A program made the translations under genes and the position numbers. Source: a virus (taxonomy: Duplodnaviria > Caudoviricetes). From it: a stretch of DNA of 38,710 nucleotides. Below the pieces are notes generated by a model. The model worked only from the letters and a program-made list of their open reading frames with translations, made no database searches and was not told the origin of the DNA. Below are positions 12,665 to 32,343 of this stretch, in pieces (position 1 is the first letter of the stretch; each line of letters starts with the position of its first letter). The DNA lies in IMG/VR virus record IMGVR_UViG_3300025803_000029, positions 1 through 38,710 of that record; one strand, written 5' to 3'.

Positions 12665-12856
12665 TTAGTGTACTGTGACACCTCTAGGTACATTTAATAA
12701 TTGTTCTATTCCAAGATCATCCATGATGTGATGTGAAAAATATCTGCACTCAGTTAAATCATTGAAACCGCCAAAGTGTACTACAACGCTATTGGTAGAC
12801 TCCATAATGTAGATAACTGCTGAATATCCTTGTTTGCCATCTTCGTAGTCGAACAT
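12665..12856 (-). CDS. Hypothetical protein
   Basis: ORF track; AAGGG RBS. Confidence 0.6.
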   Translation of the reverse strand: MFDYEDGKQGYSAVIYIMESTNSVVVHFGGFNDLTECRYFSHHIMDDLGIEQLLNVPRGVTVH

Positions 12857-13191
12857 ATTAAAAACCCTTGTTTATTTGTGTGTAACATCCCTAATTTTTT
12901 TTTTAGTTACCGATATAGCTTTGGGGTATGGCTTCGTTCAAAACCCCCCAAAATCTAGGTTTAGAACTAAAAACTGATTAGTAATCAATTGGTTTAGTCT
13001 ATTAACCTTGATAAATAATAATTTTATTATGCCGGTATAGTTTTGGTATAGCTTAGCTCTAATATTTTCTGTAGTTTAGAATAATTCTAGAACAAAATGT
13101 GAACATTTAAACCTTAGCTATAAGGTTCGGTGTGCTAGTTTTATCTGCAACTCACATAATATTAAACTATTACCAGTAAAATCAATAACTT

Positions 13192-13611
13192 TTACTTATC
13201 CCACTTAACAACTAATGGAGTATTTTTATCAAAATTTAATGTAGTTGCATCCCTTTTAGCATAGTATTTGGGTGCAATTCGTTCAGATTTCCACTTACTT
13301 AGATCAACAAATGACTTAATTAAATGTGTTTGTCCTAAATCTGTCTTTTCTTTAAACTTACTGTTCTCAATACTTTCGTTAAGTAAATCTTGTGCATCAG
13401 ATAATAAATATTCAATACCATCTGTTTTAGCATCTTCGTATTGCTGCCTAAGCTCAGGATCTTTTCTCATCCATGATCTAAAGGTTTCCCAACATGGTCT
13501 ATCTTTAGCTTTATTTATTGGTGTAAGACAGCTTCTGATACTTTTGCCTACAGCAAGCTCAGATAGTATTTCTTTGATCAAAGTCTTGTTGTATTTAGTT
13601 TTATTGGCCAT
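13192..13611 (-). CDS. terS: Terminase small subunit (Sf6-like)
   Basis: LAVGKSIRSC...P...TFRSW...QYEDAK and KW..ERIAPKYY motifs; upstream of terL. Confidence 0.8.
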   Translation of the reverse strand: MANKTKYNKTLIKEILSELAVGKSIRSCLTPINKAKDRPCWETFRSWMRKDPELRQQYEDAKTDGIEYLLSDAQDLLNESIENSKFKEKTDLGQTHLIKSFVDLSKWKSERIAPKYYAKRDATTLNFDKNTPLVVKWDK

Positions 13612-13630
13612 TTTATTAATCTATTTCTGG

Positions 13631-13659
13631 TTGTAATACTGTTAGCGATAGTGTTTAAT
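13631..13659 (+). promoter_or_regulatory. Sigma70-like promoter TTGTAA-N17-TTTAAT
   Basis: 17-bp spacing; spacer begins TACTGTTA as in the integrase-operon promoter. Confidence 0.4.
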
Positions 13660-13699
13660 AGTGTTATCAACTGATTCTAACGAATCAAAGGAGAGAAAT

Positions 13700-13858
13700 A
13701 TGTTTAATAAAAATAAAATACTAACTACTCCAATTGTTATGTTTAGAGTTCCTATTCTTAAATACTACAAGAACAAGGATAAGTTCAAATCAGCATTAAA
13801 CAATAGGAAAGAGTTAAAAAAGCTTAAATTAAAAGACTTTAAGCCTATCGAACATTAA
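13700..13858 (+). CDS. 52-aa basic protein, counter-oriented (moron-like); true start probably 13700
   Basis: AAGGAGAGAAAT RBS precedes the ATG at 13700, in frame with ORF 13661..13858. Confidence 0.6.
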   Translation: MFNKNKILTTPIVMFRVPILKYYKNKDKFKSALNNRKELKKLKLKDFKPIEH

Positions 13859-23294: not shown

Positions 23295-24440
23295 TTAACC
23301 CCAATTGTAGTGTTTGTTTTGATAATCAATGTTCTGCACTTCATCACCATTGCTTTGATATGGTTTGATGTAAGTGTCCTGGACAAAGTTAATATCCTTA
23401 TCCCCTAGTGCTTTTGCCAAATCTATAGCGTTAGTGTACTTGCCGGTATATGCCCAGTAAGTAGCTGTGAAATGGCGAAAGAAGTACGACTTTCTATCTA
23501 TGGGTAGTTGCACCTTATTTTTAGCTAGCACCCTCTCTAAGTGGCTAATAATAGCTTCAATACATATATATTTACCTTTGCTATTAAGAAACAATATAGA
23601 TTGTTTGCTAGGCAAAGAATTAACATAATCTGTCAAAACATCTTTAAGTGCAGTAGAAATAACTAAAGTTCTATTACCATTAACTGTCTTAGTATCGCCA
23701 AGTTTCTTTTTAGCTTTGACCGCTTTATCAAATCTAATCATTGGTATATTGCCTTTAAACAATAAGCTTTTTCTATCTAAGGCTCTGGCCTCACTTGGTC
23801 TGCAAGCAGTTTCAAGCAGAACCATACAGATAATTTGAATCATTTTATTACTTATACCGCTAACAATATTAGACACTCTCTCTAACGACCACTCATGAAA
23901 ATCCAATGCTTTTGTAATTTTTTTGGGTGTAACAATAGTAACTAAGTAATCTTTATCTTTGCAGATATTCTTAGCTAACTTATCAGTATCTACCTGGTGC
24001 TGAATAATTAAGCTTAAAGTATTAAATATCTTCCTAGCGGTACTAGATTTAATTTGAGCTTTTAGGATCTTATTTTTTAAGTAATCTATAAACTCAAATA
24101 CCTTATGCTTATCAATAGTTCTTATATCTACATTTTCAAAAAAAGGTAAAATGTGATTGATATAAAAGCTACTATATTCACCAACAGTAGAGGGTTGGAT
24201 TTTATTTTCTAACTGTTTGTATTTTTGGTGCTGCATAAAAGCTATATTAGCTTCACTTAAAAATACTTGTGAGGATGATGTTTTAAATACACCAACCTCA
24301 GTTACTTTTTCTTTAGCTAATGACTCTAATACAGATTTATTTTTATGGGATATAAACTTAACTTTACCATCTATACCCCAATAAGAATAACGCCATATTC
24401 TTTTACCATTTTTTTGTACTGGTCTAATTTGTAGTTCCAT
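23295..24440 (-). CDS. int: Tyrosine integrase
   Basis: ETACRPSEARAL, KT, YFFRH, LGD and DTY catalytic-region motifs; N-terminal arm and SAM-like domains. Confidence 0.92.
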   Translation of the reverse strand: MELQIRPVQKNGKRIWRYSYWGIDGKVKFISHKNKSVLESLAKEKVTEVGVFKTSSSQVFLSEANIAFMQHQKYKQLENKIQPSTVGEYSSFYINHILPFFENVDIRTIDKHKVFEFIDYLKNKILKAQIKSSTARKIFNTLSLIIQHQVDTDKLAKNICKDKDYLVTIVTPKKITKALDFHEWSLERVSNIVSGISNKMIQIICMVLLETACRPSEARALDRKSLLFKGNIPMIRFDKAVKAKKKLGDTKTVNGNRTLVISTALKDVLTDYVNSLPSKQSILFLNSKGKYICIEAIISHLERVLAKNKVQLPIDRKSYFFRHFTATYWAYTGKYTNAIDLAKALGDKDINFVQDTYIKPYQSNGDEVQNIDYQNKHYNWG

Positions 24441-24452
24441 ACTCTCTCCTTG

Positions 24453-24626
24453 TTAATTTTCTCTATTACAAATATCGCAATCTTCTGTTCTTTCTTCATG
24501 CTCTTTACCTTGAACAGGAATCTGACCAGAACCATCACAATTTGGACATTCCTCAATTCCAAACAAATCAGATGTAATTGCTTTTTCTTTTTTGTATTTT
24601 CTTGGGTGCTTAAAAATAAATGTCAT
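24453..24626 (-). CDS. 57-aa zinc-finger protein (CPNCDGSG...CDIC), not in ORF track
   Basis: Hand translation; ATGA overlap with the upstream gene and GGAGG RBS. Confidence 0.7.
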   Translation of the reverse strand: MTFIFKHPRKYKKEKAITSDLFGIEECPNCDGSGQIPVQGKEHEERTEDCDICNREN

Positions 24627-24916
24627 GCTCTACCTCCATAATAGTTTAACTCATTTTCTTTTTGACATTCCTCTAGCTCATCAATTGGAAGTTTTGGTTG
24701 AGGTTTGCTTAGAGTTATTAATTTAAACTCATAACCAAAAATTTTGTAAGATTGTCCAAAATTTAGATCACAAATTTTATTAGATAAATCTTCTCTATAA
24801 TTTTTGTGTAAAGGAAAATCTAAAATAAATCTTAAATCCCAACACAGATCCATTTTGTCATAATAAGTTTTATTAGTAACAACATCTTGCTTATCTTTTA
24901 TTTGAACTTTAATCAT
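24623..24916 (-). CDS. Hypothetical protein, first gene of the integrase operon
   Basis: AGGAGAG RBS; ORF track. Confidence 0.6.
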   Translation of the reverse strand: MIKVQIKDKQDVVTNKTYYDKMDLCWDLRFILDFPLHKNYREDLSNKICDLNFGQSYKIFGYEFKLITLSKPQPKLPIDELEECQKENELNYYGGRA

Positions 24917-24949
24917 TTTTCTCTCCTATATTTATTAAGTTATAACAAT

Positions 24950-24978
24950 GTTATACTATACCTATAACAGTATTGCAA
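24950..24978 (-). promoter_or_regulatory. Integrase-operon promoter TTGCAA-N17-TATAAC
   Basis: Same hexamers and spacing as the copies at 18840 and 19614. Confidence 0.6.
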
Positions 24979-25100
24979 ATAATCAATTGGTGTTATTTCC
25001 CTTATTTCCCAATCATTTTGTAATGGGTATTTCCAAAGTATAGCTAGCAAGGGTATAAAAAAGGTATAGAACGCAATGATTCTATTTATATTTTGGGCAT

Positions 25101-25163: not shown

Positions 25164-25204
25164 GCCCTTGTAGCTCAGTTGGTAGAGCAATTGATTTGTA
25201 ATCA
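25164..25204 (+). mobile_element. attP: attP core: 5' half of tRNA-Thr(UGU)
   Basis: GCCCTTG-TA-GCTC-AGTTGGTA-GAGC-A-ATTGA-TTTGTAA-TCA, after which similarity stops (no T-arm); near the integrase. Confidence 0.85.
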
Positions 25205-25430
25205 CTAATAACAATAAAATTACTCTTATTATTACTAGCAAATCTGCTACTTGGTATATTATTGGTATAGTTCACAATTGTTAGTTTTTATCTTTTCTCA
25301 GAATCAATACTATAACATCATTAATTCAGAGTCCAATTATACCTATACCAATTGATTCTGTACCCACCCTTTCCCACTAGCTAAAGCTAGAACTATACCT
25401 ACTTAATAAGTAGATATTCCTATTCGGTAA

Positions 25431-25646
25431 TTACATTTGTTCTTCTAATAATTTTTTCATAGCATTTAATGAAGAAATATTTTTAGGTAGAGATTTGTTT
25501 AAAAACTCTAACTCTTTTTCACCAGCTGCAACTCCAGTTATTTTTTTTCTGTATTCATTAAAAACTTTTGTAGCTTCTTTGTTAAACTTATCTTTATCTT
25601 CCTCATTCATAGATTTAAAGTTTTGTTTTAAAAATTTACTTGCCAT
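25431..25646 (-). CDS. 71-aa protein carrying a copy of an ejection-protein motif
   Basis: FNEYRKKITGVAAGEKE versus FNQYRKEITGVAAGEKE in 31258..32343. Confidence 0.75.
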   Translation of the reverse strand: MASKFLKQNFKSMNEEDKDKFNKEATKVFNEYRKKITGVAAGEKELEFLNKSLPKNISSLNAMKKLLEEQM

Positions 25647-25649
25647 TAT

Positions 25650-25817
25650 TTACCTCTTTTTCTTTGTTGGTTTTTTAGCTGTCTTTGCAGCTCTTTTAAA
25701 ATTAGCAGCAGTTGGAGCTCCTTTAGAACCTACTTTTCTCATTCGTTCACCGCTACCAGCTTTAATTCTTTTACGCTTTGCTGCGATATTAGCGTAAAGA
25801 CCTTTTCTTTTTGCCAT
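25650..25817 (-). CDS. 55-aa basic protein MAKRKGLYANIAAKRKRIKAGSGERMRKVGSKGAP...
   Basis: Hand translation; GLYANI motif familiar from small basic phage proteins. Confidence 0.75.
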   Translation of the reverse strand: MAKRKGLYANIAAKRKRIKAGSGERMRKVGSKGAPTAANFKRAAKTAKKPTKKKR

Positions 25818-25820
25818 AGT

Positions 25821-25997
25821 TTATTTATCCTTATTTAATTGTTTGTTATGGTCATCTTTCTTCATACAAAGATAATGAGCATGACCCTCTGGGTAAAAAC
25901 TTACAAATGAATCTGTATTAACAATATTGTCTGAGCAATACCTACACTTACCAACATCAGTTAAGATGTTAGTTTTCTTCCATAATTTTTTTGACAC
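25821..25997 (-). CDS. 58-aa putative zinc-binding protein with GTG start (CRYC...HYLC)
   Basis: Hand translation; exactly fills the intergenic gap. Confidence 0.6.
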   Translation of the reverse strand: MSKKLWKKTNILTDVGKCRYCSDNIVNTDSFVSFYPEGHAHYLCMKKDDHNKQLNKDK

Positions 25998-26273
25998 TTA
26001 GCAGTTCCATTTTCTAAGAGCTTTGTTAATTCTTGAATTAGGATCTCTTGCGGTCTTGGCAGATGTAAGTCTTTTCTTCATACCTAACATCCTTGCACAA
26101 AATGATTTACGTCTGTTAGCTGCCTTACTACCCTTTTTTAATTTACTTGGTTTAGTAGTAACTGGTGCTTTTAGATTGCCACCAGTAGCTCTATTATAGC
26201 TAGCTCTACCTTTTGCATTAAGTCCACCAGATTTAGATTTACCAGCTTTACGCTGCCATGATGGAGTTGCCAT
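25998..26273 (-). CDS. Basic phage protein (DUF6321-like)
   Basis: GGLNAKGRASYN...RRKSFCARM...SRINKALRKWNC. Confidence 0.7.
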   Translation of the reverse strand: MATPSWQRKAGKSKSGGLNAKGRASYNRATGGNLKAPVTTKPSKLKKGSKAANRRKSFCARMLGMKKRLTSAKTARDPNSRINKALRKWNC

Positions 26274-29115: not shown

Positions 29116-29258
29116 AAAAGTTTATAAACATTATCCACCTTAATATCTAAGTGAGCTAAATGATTATCCTTTATTACTGAAATCTTGTTGTGTATGAGTT
29201 TGATCTCACCTTGTAACTTTATAATTTGCTCTGTGTTTTTTTGTGATTGTGTCGGCAT
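29052..29258 (-). CDS. Small coiled-coil protein with a C-terminal TM segment
   Basis: IKDNHLAHL motif followed by a hydrophobic tail. Confidence 0.6.
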   Translation of the reverse strand: MPTQSQKNTEQIIKLQGEIKLIHNKISVIKDNHLAHLDIKVDNVYKLLWAVGLISLSSLISLVVNLLS

Positions 29259-31258
29259 TATTCTAACTCATCAGTTCCAATAGTTAAAGCTCTTATCAAA
29301 CTTACAGCTTTGTTTTTGTTTTTCCAATTTTGAGCTAAATCTATAAAAGCATTAATACCATCTTTACTAACAAGAGCTTCTGCAATTTCTTGTGATGATT
29401 TACTATATGCTCTTTCGCCAAACCATTTTTTAATACCAGTTAATGCAAAACCCTCTATGACATCAAATGGTGTTTTACTTAATTGTTCTTTAGCACCTAT
29501 GTTTGTAGCAGTTGTAGAACCTACTTTACCACCAGCTCCACTAGCTTTTAAAACATTAGCAAAAGAAGTTACTGCTTTTTGAACATCAGATTTTTTAACA
29601 TTTTTATTTGTTGTCAAAGCTAACTGATACATAACCTCAGTAAAGTTTTCTTTGTTTCTAGGTGTTTTTAAAATTGCATTATAAAAATTGTTACCAGTAT
29701 TTAAACCTCTATTCATATTATCAATAGCAGCTTTATTGAAAGCATTGTTAAAGAAATCACTTGCTATATTTTCCCAAGCACCCTCAACACCACTTTTATT
29801 AACTGCTGTTGCTAATTTTTCTATATCAGCTGATCTAACATTTGGTGATGTAATATATTTATAAATATTTGCATTTGTTTTAGAGCTTTCAATCCATCTA
29901 CCTTTTTTAAGATCGTTAAACAGTTCTGTTACTGAACCTTTACTTAATGGTTTTTCAAAAGTTTCAGAAAATACTCTGTATTTTTTATTAGCACTAACCC
30001 AATCATCATTGGTAACTAATAATTTTTTTATTACATCTTTAGCTTCTTCAAAACTTTTAGCAGCTGTAAAGTTTTCACCTTTAGCTGATTGAATACCACC
30101 ATCTCTTAAATCTTGATAAATTTTATTTATTACAGATCCTTTACCATCTGATTTACCAATAGCATTTGCTTGTCTTGTTAAATATTTAGCAATTTCCTCA
30201 GGTGCATTTTCAGCAACCTTTAACAATTCAATTTTAATATTATCTACTGATTGTGAGTCAAAGAAGCTTTTATTAAATTTTTCACCACCAGATTTAAGCC
30301 ACATTTTTGATCTTTGTTGATCTAATTGTAATGCAACTTTTTTAACTTGTTCGTTAATACTACTACTTGTTATTAAACCTGAGTCAGGCAATAAACCATT
30401 AGCTTTACCCCAGTTAGTTATATAATTTTTTAATTGTTGTGGTCTGTTTTTCCAATGAGCATCTAATACTTTATTACCTATAAGGTTTGCATTTGTAGAA
30501 CCCTCTAATTTTAATATAGATGCAGATTCTGTTGCTTCACCAGTAGTAATATTAAGACCATATTTTTTTGCATCTTTTTGTATTTTTTTTGCATTATTAA
30601 TTGTTTTTTGGTCTGGCAAAACATTCTCAATTACACCAGCTAAATTACCTTTTTTAAGTGCAAGTAAATCTAATATAACATTACTTACAACACCAACACC
30701 AGTACCCATACCCTCACTTTGTAAAGTTTGTGTAGCAGTTTCATCTATTAAACCACTTGCACCACCAGTACCCATTAAAACAGTTTTAGCTTTTGGGGTT
30801 TTAGAAAGTAATCCATAAGGCATATATTCAGCAGCAGTACCAGCAAACTGACCAACTGTTGTTTTAGCCTCATAGTTAGCAGCATCACCTAAAAAATTAT
30901 CATTAATATATTTACCTGGTCTAAACTCAGTTACATCTACTGGTAATTTACTTTTTTCAATAATTTCATTTTGATCAGCTTCTGACATTCCAGATGCAGT
31001 TGCCATTTTTTTAAAAACAAAATCTTTACCAGTATCAACAGCATCTAAAAGCATAAAAGGTAAATCTAATATTTGTACTGCATTACCAACAAATTTATTT
31101 GATGCAGTTAAAAGCGGATCTAAAGATTGCTCAATAATAGATATATCTTGGTTTTCTACTTTTTCTGTATCTATAGTTTTATCATCTGTTGGTAAAAGTT
31201 TTTCTACTTCTTTTTCAACGTCAATAGTTTTGTAATAATTACTTAAAAAATCTGACAT
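29258..31258 (-). CDS. Large internal virion / DNA-ejection protein
   Basis: Helical and Gly/Ala-rich, ITTGEAT motif; last of the ejection-protein block. Confidence 0.65.
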   Translation of the reverse strand: MSDFLSNYYKTIDVEKEVEKLLPTDDKTIDTEKVENQDISIIEQSLDPLLTASNKFVGNAVQILDLPFMLLDAVDTGKDFVFKKMATASGMSEADQNEIIEKSKLPVDVTEFRPGKYINDNFLGDAANYEAKTTVGQFAGTAAEYMPYGLLSKTPKAKTVLMGTGGASGLIDETATQTLQSEGMGTGVGVVSNVILDLLALKKGNLAGVIENVLPDQKTINNAKKIQKDAKKYGLNITTGEATESASILKLEGSTNANLIGNKVLDAHWKNRPQQLKNYITNWGKANGLLPDSGLITSSSINEQVKKVALQLDQQRSKMWLKSGGEKFNKSFFDSQSVDNIKIELLKVAENAPEEIAKYLTRQANAIGKSDGKGSVINKIYQDLRDGGIQSAKGENFTAAKSFEEAKDVIKKLLVTNDDWVSANKKYRVFSETFEKPLSKGSVTELFNDLKKGRWIESSKTNANIYKYITSPNVRSADIEKLATAVNKSGVEGAWENIASDFFNNAFNKAAIDNMNRGLNTGNNFYNAILKTPRNKENFTEVMYQLALTTNKNVKKSDVQKAVTSFANVLKASGAGGKVGSTTATNIGAKEQLSKTPFDVIEGFALTGIKKWFGERAYSKSSQEIAEALVSKDGINAFIDLAQNWKNKNKAVSLIRALTIGTDELE

Positions 31259-32343
31259 TATAAAGCACCCCCAGTTTGACCAGCTATATATTTTTGTAAA
31301 ATTTCTTCCCAGTTTTGATTAGGGAACTGTATGTTCATTAATTGTATTGCTTGTTCTGGTTTGTAATTATAATCAACTTTATAAGAAATAAATAATTCAT
31401 TTAAGTATTCACCACTTGGTTTTATTTTATTTTTTAGATATTTACCAAAACCCTCAGAATAAACTTTTTCGCCTTTATCATTTATTTTATAAACTGTACC
31501 ACCTGACTCTTTAAATGCTTTAGCTTTTTCTAGTAGCTCTGTTTGTATTCTAATTTGATTTTTCATCTTAGCTCTGTAGGTAGTTTGTGTATCTTTAGAA
31601 CTAGGTATAGATGCTTCTAACCATGCAATCTCTTTTTCACCAGCAGCAACACCAGTAATTTCTTTTCTGTATTGGTTAAAGTATTGTAGGTTATTTTGAT
31701 CCCATGTACTGTAGCTTCTTAAATATGCAGCATCATCTTGATTTAATGGTATATTGGCTTTATCAAGTAATAAAAGTTTTTGATACCTAATTTTACCACC
31801 AACAGTTAAAAACTCATCTTTAAACATAGCTTGAGTAGCTTGTAACTGACCTAAAAGTTTATCTGCACCTTGCAGTTCTTTTTCAACTTTTGTTTTAGTA
31901 CCTTTACTTAAACCACTAACATCTGTTGATGTTACATTTTGTTTAAACTCTGTATAGTTTTCTTTTAATAATTGCTCTAAAGTAGTTTGATCATTAGGGT
32001 TAGATAAATTTAAACTTCTTATATCTTTACCATCAGGTGATTTTAAAGTTACTAAATTAGGTTTTTGTGGTTTTTGAAACTTTTTATTTTTTATGTATTC
32101 TAATGGAAATGCTTTAAATAAAGCTTTATCTTCTTCTGGAACTTGATTAGCAAATTGTTTTCTAAACTTTCTTTTTTCTTCTTCTTCCTCCATAGCTTGA
32201 AACATAGAAGCTGTTTTCATACCTTGTTGAATCATCGGAAGTGCTGCACCAGGATTTTGACCTGATAGTCCAGCAGTTAATAAACCAATACCCCCTAATA
32301 CTTCTGGTGAGTATAGTAAGCCTTTAAAAGGTGAGTCCGCCAT
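31258..32343 (-). CDS. Internal virion / DNA-ejection protein
   Basis: GIGLL N-terminus, ITGVAAGEKE motif; synteny. Confidence 0.65.
   Translation of the reverse strand: MADSPFKGLLYSPEVLGGIGLLTAGLSGQNPGAALPMIQQGMKTASMFQAMEEEEEKRKFRKQFANQVPEEDKALFKAFPLEYIKNKKFQKPQKPNLVTLKSPDGKDIRSLNLSNPNDQTTLEQLLKENYTEFKQNVTSTDVSGLSKGTKTKVEKELQGADKLLGQLQATQAMFKDEFLTVGGKIRYQKLLLLDKANIPLNQDDAAYLRSYSTWDQNNLQYFNQYRKEITGVAAGEKEIAWLEASIPSSKDTQTTYRAKMKNQIRIQTELLEKAKAFKESGGTVYKINDKGEKVYSEGFGKYLKNKIKPSGEYLNELFISYKVDYNYKPEQAIQLMNIQFPNQNWEEILQKYIAGQTGGAL

Follow-up and report, generated by a model that had tools for sequence, protein, structure and literature searches.

A small late-operon protein of HTVC106P-type pelagiphages copies a motif of a putative DNA-ejection protein and probably that of a second one

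Here we show that a 71-residue protein encoded among the late genes of a pelagiphage carries a copy of a helix-loop-helix motif of EJ2, the second putative DNA-ejection protein of the same phage. The N-terminus of the small protein probably copies that of EJ3, the third putative ejection protein, a resemblance that is new here and is based on sequence comparison. Because the gene lies among the virion genes and the protein has no export signal, the small protein likely acts on the assembly of the injection proteins inside the cell, and not on the entry of other phages. Our preferred reading, which we hold tentatively, is that it works late and in the cytoplasm, as a cap or adaptor for ejection proteins of the same phage. 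A chaperone for the phage's own ejection protein was the last option offered by a first-pass annotation of this DNA and is the best supported of the options it listed. The window, by which we mean the whole stretch of DNA analysed, is a complete virus record of 38,710 nt, and its features are listed in Table 1.

Table 1. Positions of the small gene, the ejection module and neighbouring features in the window
Feature	Position	Strand	Remarks
terS-terL gap (site B)	12856..13192	-	empty in the window; houses the small gene in many relatives
Tyrosine integrase	23295..24440	-	phrog_1, E 1e-33
attP core candidate	25164..25204	+	5' half of tRNA-Thr(TGT), 41-nt copy
Double hairpin after the stop codon	25360..25428	-	stems kept through sequence changes
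Small protein, 71 aa	25431..25646	-	GAGGT ribosome site, 3 nt past the upstream stop
I-type motif, small protein residues 29-54	25485..25562	-	copy of the EJ2 helix-loop-helix; dN/dS 0.12
Probable EJ3 N-terminal peptide copy, small protein residues 1-20	25587..25646	-	
EJ3, 666 aa, third putative ejection protein	29258..31258	-	by position
EJ3 residues 1-20	31199-31258	-	resembles the small protein N-terminus
EJ2, 361 aa, second putative ejection protein	31258..32343	-	gp20/gp15-like by position alone
EJ2 residues 222-247, copied stretch	31603..31680	-	spans the end of helix 202-230, a Gly loop and the short helix 239-244
EJ1, 234 aa	33436..34140	-	phrog_4287 'DNA ejection protein', E 4e-7; anchors the module assignment

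The closest isolate to the window is the Pelagibacter phage HTVC106P, with a portal that is 62% identical and a syntenic gene order; an HTVC010P-type assignment, our first guess, was replaced by an HTVC106P-type one. The window has the shared structural genes, the tyrosine integrase and the SAR11 tRNA-Thr/Asn core of the integrase-bearing HTVC106P-type phages. This branch, with its tyrosine integrases and SAR11 tRNA-Thr or tRNA-Asn sites, has already been published, and the accessible part of the main text of that paper does not mention the small gene (bioRxiv 10.1101/2019.12.14.876532). The HTVC106P isolate itself differs from the window in having no integrase, a different EJ2 type and no small gene. 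The assignment to a SAR11 host is a prediction from sequence, and no tRNA or host-phage junction was found in the stretches examined of one contig from a GTDB scan. That scan gave two contigs. The one examined, which is metagenome-assembled (G021:C4:975000-1050000), contains a tandem pair of related but distinct phage sequences; frameshifts are numerous, the two sequences have separate small-gene alleles (of the I and K types described below), and the arrangement is possibly an assembly chimera.

Some features around the integrase deserve mention in their own right. The candidate attP core is flanked by pairs of TATACC direct repeats (25052-25069 and 25253-25270) that are likely the arm sites of the integrase, and of 35 integrase types, 19 have such pairs nearby. 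The terS-terL gap contains another pair (13034-13051), which is kept in close relatives only. The genes between attP and the integrase (24453-24916 in the window, and their equivalents) vary among otherwise near-identical phages, which likely makes this interval a cargo hotspot, and in one relative (L079) the integrase type has been swapped (41% vs 100%).

The ejection module is anchored by EJ1, which lies two places upstream of EJ2 and is alone in matching phrog_4287. EJ2 follows this gp7-like gene and precedes a larger one, an order that is kept in K-type and in more distant phages, and the gene order and sizes of EJ1-EJ2-EJ3 are like those of P22 gp7/gp20/gp16 and Pa223 gp56/gp54/gp53 (PDB 9nxo). 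The label 'ejection protein' that had been given to the 361-aa ORF is one by position and not by homology: searches of PHROG, Pfam and PDB gave no match, the fold matches were generic helical bundles with Z below 8, and HHalign comparisons with P22 gp20 and phiM5 gp29 were not significant. Likewise, neither EJ2 nor EJ3 showed a significant sequence or fold match to the ejection proteins of P22 or Pa223. EJ2 is predicted to form a helical bundle at residues 140-283, and its nearest named cluster in the ESM Atlas, PF16928 (23% of members, score 0.90), is a lead only. The EJ2-EJ3 pair (29258-32343 in the window, and in relatives) is swapped as a module among HTVC106P-type phages independently of the integrase, and comes in an I-type, a K-type and HTVC106P's own type. 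The N-termini of EJ3 are of many types that track the C-termini of EJ2 (Spearman 0.51, against 0.34 and 0.19 for other parts of EJ2); at the sequence level, this tracking fits a docking pair.

The alignment reported by the first-pass annotation was recovered exactly: 18 of the 26 residues are identical, including 15 of the first 17, as are 61 of the 78 nucleotides, whereas 200 shuffled versions of the small protein, compared in all six frames, reached a top 26-residue identity of 12. A tblastn search of the small protein against the window returned the EJ2 motif with E 6.9e-10, and HHalign aligned the small-protein motif with EJ2 at a probability of 98.9. The copied stretch is the best-conserved internal window of EJ2 (0.88 against a mean of 0.61, among 120 homologues listed of 178 found), and only the N-terminal hydrophobic segment of EJ2 is conserved more (0.90). 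The small protein is basic and has predicted helices at residues 4-9, 15-37, 43-52 and 57-69; AlphaFold models the helix-loop-helix alike in both proteins, with low confidence in the Gly loop of EJ2. No family or structure match was found for the small protein. The small protein, three variants of it, EJ2 and EJ3 were also compared with 50,697 GenBank phages, and none had a match, apart from hits at E 3-4 for one variant.

The Gly-loop pattern of the motif may offer a clue to its partner. The second proteins of Venkman and LUZ24/Pa223 show a similar pattern, and those of phiM5 and P22 a looser one. In Pa223 the protein at the EJ2 position was resolved as a ring around the portal, comprising residues 174-319 (bioRxiv 10.1101/2025.06.11.659172, accessible part), and the similar pattern, at residues 205-213, falls inside this portal-ringing region. 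A scan of 199,628 residues from other proteins, some of them redundant, gave no match to the pattern, although helices are generically capped in this way. By analogy, we take it as a lead only to a contact between the loop and the portal; HHalign and fold comparisons did not establish a portal link of EJ2 by homology.

The small gene belongs to a family of about 100 distinct proteins of 45-108 aa in HTVC106P-type pelagiphages. All 32 candidates left after clustering at 90% were homologues, and when 1.84 billion representatives were searched with a profile, 74 matched, 37 long and 37 short, the short representatives at the 50% identity level numbering 37. The pooled set contains 103 distinct short proteins; some of them are truncated, and at least one, L231, is a false positive. 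The median dN/dS is 0.19 (10 genes, 42 of 45 pairs), with 0.29 in the N-terminal region, 0.12 in the motif and 0.61 in the C-terminal region. The small gene is under purifying selection, strongest in the motif, and the proposal that it is a real gene for a stand-alone mimic conserved at the protein level is borne out. Some close pairs do have a dN/dS above 1, and three close site-B pairs (see below) have 11-27 replacement against 0.5-2 silent changes; this excess lies in blocks and may be recombination. A decaying duplication without function would agree with such pairs and with a gene that is short and missing in many relatives, but it is hardly tenable and already largely refuted by the low median dN/dS, the 37 short representatives and the ribosome sites, which are intact wherever the small gene sits.

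The first-pass annotation had taken the synonymous codons in the aligned stretch as a sign that the copy is not a recent DNA duplication. An old copy is indeed what we find, albeit for other reasons. The codons at the 18 identical residues are the same in 14 and differ synonymously in four, and these four changes prove little because the proportion of shared codons (14/18) exceeds the 0.60 seen between distant EJ2 genes. In a tree, however, the small-protein cores group apart from the EJ2 cores (3 changes, versus 26 after shuffling; 54 and 32 rows, respectively, with a rough bootstrap), and a non-cognate EJ2 gene is closer to the small gene than the cognate one (64 versus 61 of 78 nt). Thus, the motif copy has an old origin and has not been refreshed from the cognate gene.

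The resemblance between the N-termini of the small protein and EJ3 was spotted by eye and then tested. With a matrix built from 36 small-protein 12-mers, one EJ3 N-terminus ranked first of 472,023 sequence windows from 1,460 long ORFs, the top EJ3 hit scoring 20.0 bits and the next unrelated one 8.6, and the EJ3 of the phage studied here was within the top 23. An HMM of small-protein N-termini matched EJ3 with E 3e-4, and HHalign gave a modest match (p 0.005, probability 6.8); the reverse search was not significant. The pair formed by the small protein and EJ3 of the window ranks second of 99 N-termini. The cognate EJ3 scored above the median in 15 of 16 alleles, yet 13 of the 16 match one and the same EJ3 type best. 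For the C-terminal block of the small protein, a profile search gave no clear source.

A degenerate DNA search revealed a second loop type, K: it corresponds to the same element, but in another family of EJ2 proteins, which lytic and some temperate relatives use. When the two families are aligned, their loops fall in register (p 0.003, probability 12), and HHalign aligned the K-type small protein with K-type EJ2 at 95.5. The 103 small proteins comprise 58 with one I-type loop, 20 with one K-type loop, 15 with two or three loops, nine of which are of mixed type, and 10 without a clean match. Among 18 phages with an I-type EJ2 and a small gene, the latter is I-type in seven, mixed in one, degenerate I in one, a hybrid in one and K-only in eight, and in all three phages with a K-type EJ2 the small gene is K-type; these counts leave out the rows L021 (K/K) and L088 (I/K). 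About half of the alleles carry the loop of a different EJ2 family, one that lytic relatives have, and some carry it as two or three copies, which is new here.

Co-variation of the motif with the cognate EJ2, which had been suggested as a check, is not seen inside the clade; three more distant phages show it, but only as an agreement in motif type. In these three, the cognate EJ2 gives the best match among 12 motifs or ties for it (14/20, 10/20 and 10/20), whereas I-type alleles have no cognate preference (six pairs, with 10-99% of EJ2 motifs matching better). Loop type thus tracks EJ2 type at a distance, and alleles exchange freely among close relatives. In one near-identical phage (L104) the ejection module has been swapped and the small gene is family-typical. 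Unrelated small basic late proteins with one to three K-type loops are encoded in distant podophages (L330:8796-9047, L332:16736-17053, L283, L289 and L266), which suggests that stand-alone loop copies arose more than once.

The late genes of the window lie on the minus strand, from terS down to position 25431, and the small gene is, as first proposed, the last minus-strand gene before the tRNA-Thr(TGT) 5' half. In relatives, however, this location (site A) is one of three: the small gene also occurs between terS and a 63-aa gene preceding terL (site B; 18 distinct proteins) and between a 146-aa gene and EJ1 (site C; 3 distinct proteins). At every site, whether at the start, middle or end of the late operon, it is in sense with that operon, and the upstream gap is at most 11 nt in 27 of the 29 A- and C-site contexts with an upstream gene in view, the two exceptions being on an error-rich contig. 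A search for consensus promoters found none on the minus strand (3 sites, all plus, against 7.3 expected). The double hairpin after the stop codon is likely the end of the late transcript; it has no U-tract and no Rfam family, and is not specific to the gene, since it occurs in temperate and lytic relatives, including those without the small gene there. Four RNA-library runs, accessible as contigs only, cover the small gene and neighbouring late genes, but are uninformative on transcription because they also cover the intergenic attP. Very basic small late proteins of variable presence (55 aa; 91 aa, DUF6321) are encoded beside the small gene (25650-26273, minus strand) and are possibly internal DNA-binding virion proteins. 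A conserved element containing TACACAC (12870-12900, minus strand) is found, in most relatives that carry an integrase, immediately ahead of where the first ribosome site of the late genes lies and is possibly a late regulatory or packaging site.

The first-pass annotation noted the proximity to attP, at what would be the prophage end, and offered superinfection exclusion among its options. On this reading, a protein expressed in the lysogen would block the ejection channel of an incoming phage, much as SieA of P22 might. The small gene is confined to the integrase-bearing clade. It shares with SieA the setting of a temperate podophage and a connection with the second and third ejection proteins, SieA having gp16 and gp20 as its genetic targets (PMC10883804, accessible part). 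We nevertheless consider entry exclusion very unlikely. As the attP site is one of several and no sense promoter was found there, the argument from attP fails. HTVC028P integrates through a 5'-half tRNA core (accessible part of PMC8477408), and from the geometry of the window the host tRNA promoter would, after integration, read antisense into the 3' end of the small gene. Moreover, SieA resides in the inner membrane, whereas no membrane or signal segment that could take the small protein to the periplasm was found, and we predict it to be cytoplasmic and soluble because its top 19-residue hydropathy is only 0.04 (family maximum 1.26). Exclusion at entry would work only if the protein were delivered by the virion. 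The accessible part of the source on SieA describes no motif copy (PMC10883804).

In genomes covering sites A and B, exactly one copy of the small gene, at A or B, is found in nine of nine with an integrase and none in seven of seven without; HTVC106P is among the seven, two of which stop with the final late gene. The whole-record search covered 22 of the 32 loci. If site A is counted by itself, the small gene is present in 14 of 33 integrase-bearing and in 0 of 37 integrase-free repressor types. The site-A counts would suit a decoy against rival HTVC106P-type phages that acts at assembly, in the lysogen or a co-infected cell, by replacing the rival's motifs so that non-infectious particles result, an effect comparable to that of Tab on tails but achieved by mimicry. 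Several features of the alleles point the same way: the K-type loops carried by I-type phages share 12 of 20 residues with the EJ2 loop of lytic relatives, loops are stacked and mixed, and close site-B alleles show the excess of replacement changes noted above. We nevertheless regard such a decoy as rather unlikely. In a terL tree all carriers fall into a single clade (18 of 24 rows, support 93/89), so the link to lysogeny is a single contrast. A distant phage that is 96% complete and in which no integrase was found encodes an analogous protein of 83 aa, its gene being placed between terL and portal. In addition, no promoter of the small gene's own was found, a cognate copy made late would poison the phage's own assembly with no antidote evident, and the replacement excess may be recombination. 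Inside the carrier clade, one integrase-bearing contig (L352) has an empty site B, site A lying outside the contig.

Beside terS, the window has a divergent, basic 52-aa gene (13700-13858, plus strand; leader 13629-13702) with no PHROG match, whose leader resembles that of the integrase operon (24914-24978; 72% over 72 nt). In the integrase-bearing group, 17 of 21 terS types have it, against none of nine in the integrase-free group; in two relatives an opposite-strand gene of 173-176 aa takes its place. Tab and anti-Tab of Pseudomonas phage JBD26 are small cytoplasmic proteins acting on virion assembly, as the small protein may be, and both are encoded between terS and terL, the equivalent of site B; neither is described as a mimic in the accessible part of the source (PMC10884400). 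Tab is antisense, has its own promoter and targets the tape measure protein, whereas the small gene is in sense, and its late, accessory placement is that of anti-Tab and not of Tab (PMC10884400, accessible part). The small protein could accordingly be a late counter-defence decoy that soaks up a host or prophage factor recognising ejection motifs, much as anti-Tab protects the tail. The in-sense position of anti-Tab in the late operon, equivalent to site B, favours this idea (accessible part of PMC10884400), which also fits an accessory, cytoplasmic protein with interchangeable alleles; the distribution of the opposite-strand 52-aa gene, which has its own leader, is a further point for it. 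We think it unlikely, since no such factor was identified, two carriers (L285 and L325) have no 52-aa gene, and a mimic could trigger a sensor instead of blocking it. No Tab-like cognate antidote gene was identified, the 52-aa gene being a candidate partner only.

Loading of ejection proteins in the cytoplasm is established for P22-like phages, and the preferred reading, a cap or adaptor, would place the small protein at this step. In favour are the in-sense placement in the late operon at every site, the lack of minus-strand promoters in the search, and the single copy in all nine integrase-bearing genomes that cover sites A and B. Made late with the virion genes, it would meet the ejection proteins in the cytoplasm at head assembly and not in the periplasm. 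Its EJ3-like N-terminal peptide would dock on the C-terminal domain of EJ2, capping the EJ2 docking site, and its EJ2-like loop would occupy, or tether to, a loop partner common to both EJ2 families. That the partner is shared is suggested because both EJ2 families use one portal family and either allele type occurs with one EJ2, and a common partner would explain why alleles are interchangeable; it would most likely be the portal or another EJ2 subunit. During loading of the phage's ejection proteins into the head, the small protein would thus serve as a cap or adaptor that is not essential, and it may be co-packaged into the virion. It should be noted that seven of seven integrase-free genomes build virions with the same EJ2 types but without the small gene, that I-type motifs do not match the cognate EJ2 better than they match others, and that the eight K-only alleles and the one hybrid in I-type phages, the module swap in L104 and the modest N-terminal match also argue against this reading.

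T4 internal proteins are likewise small, late and packaged, and share a short capsid-targeting peptide with other virion proteins. Their peptide targets the capsid, whereas the motifs of the small protein are copied from ejection proteins, and its packaging is hypothetical. Where checked, the defining features of SieA and Tab are absent from the small protein, and a two-motif design is, in the literature searched, undescribed among small late phage proteins acting on assembly. In the literature searched, i.e. outside subscription journals and bioRxiv supplements, no stand-alone copy of an ejection motif has been described.

A bolder idea, possible if improbable, is that of a modular decoy built from two ejection-protein docking motifs, which swaps and stacks loop types, including those of lytic competitors, and which, made late or carried by the virion and injected, would jam the ejectosome assembly of rivals. 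This would be exclusion by mimicry without an export signal, arisen more than once in marine podophages. If the small protein is a decoy, it would represent a way for phages to compete with one another in SAR11, the bacteria most abundant in the sea, of which we found no example in the literature searched. A natural protein of 71 residues in which only two motifs are kept by selection indicates which docking surfaces may serve to bring ejection proteins to the head and join them into a channel, and the small protein would be a ready probe or inhibitor for these surfaces.
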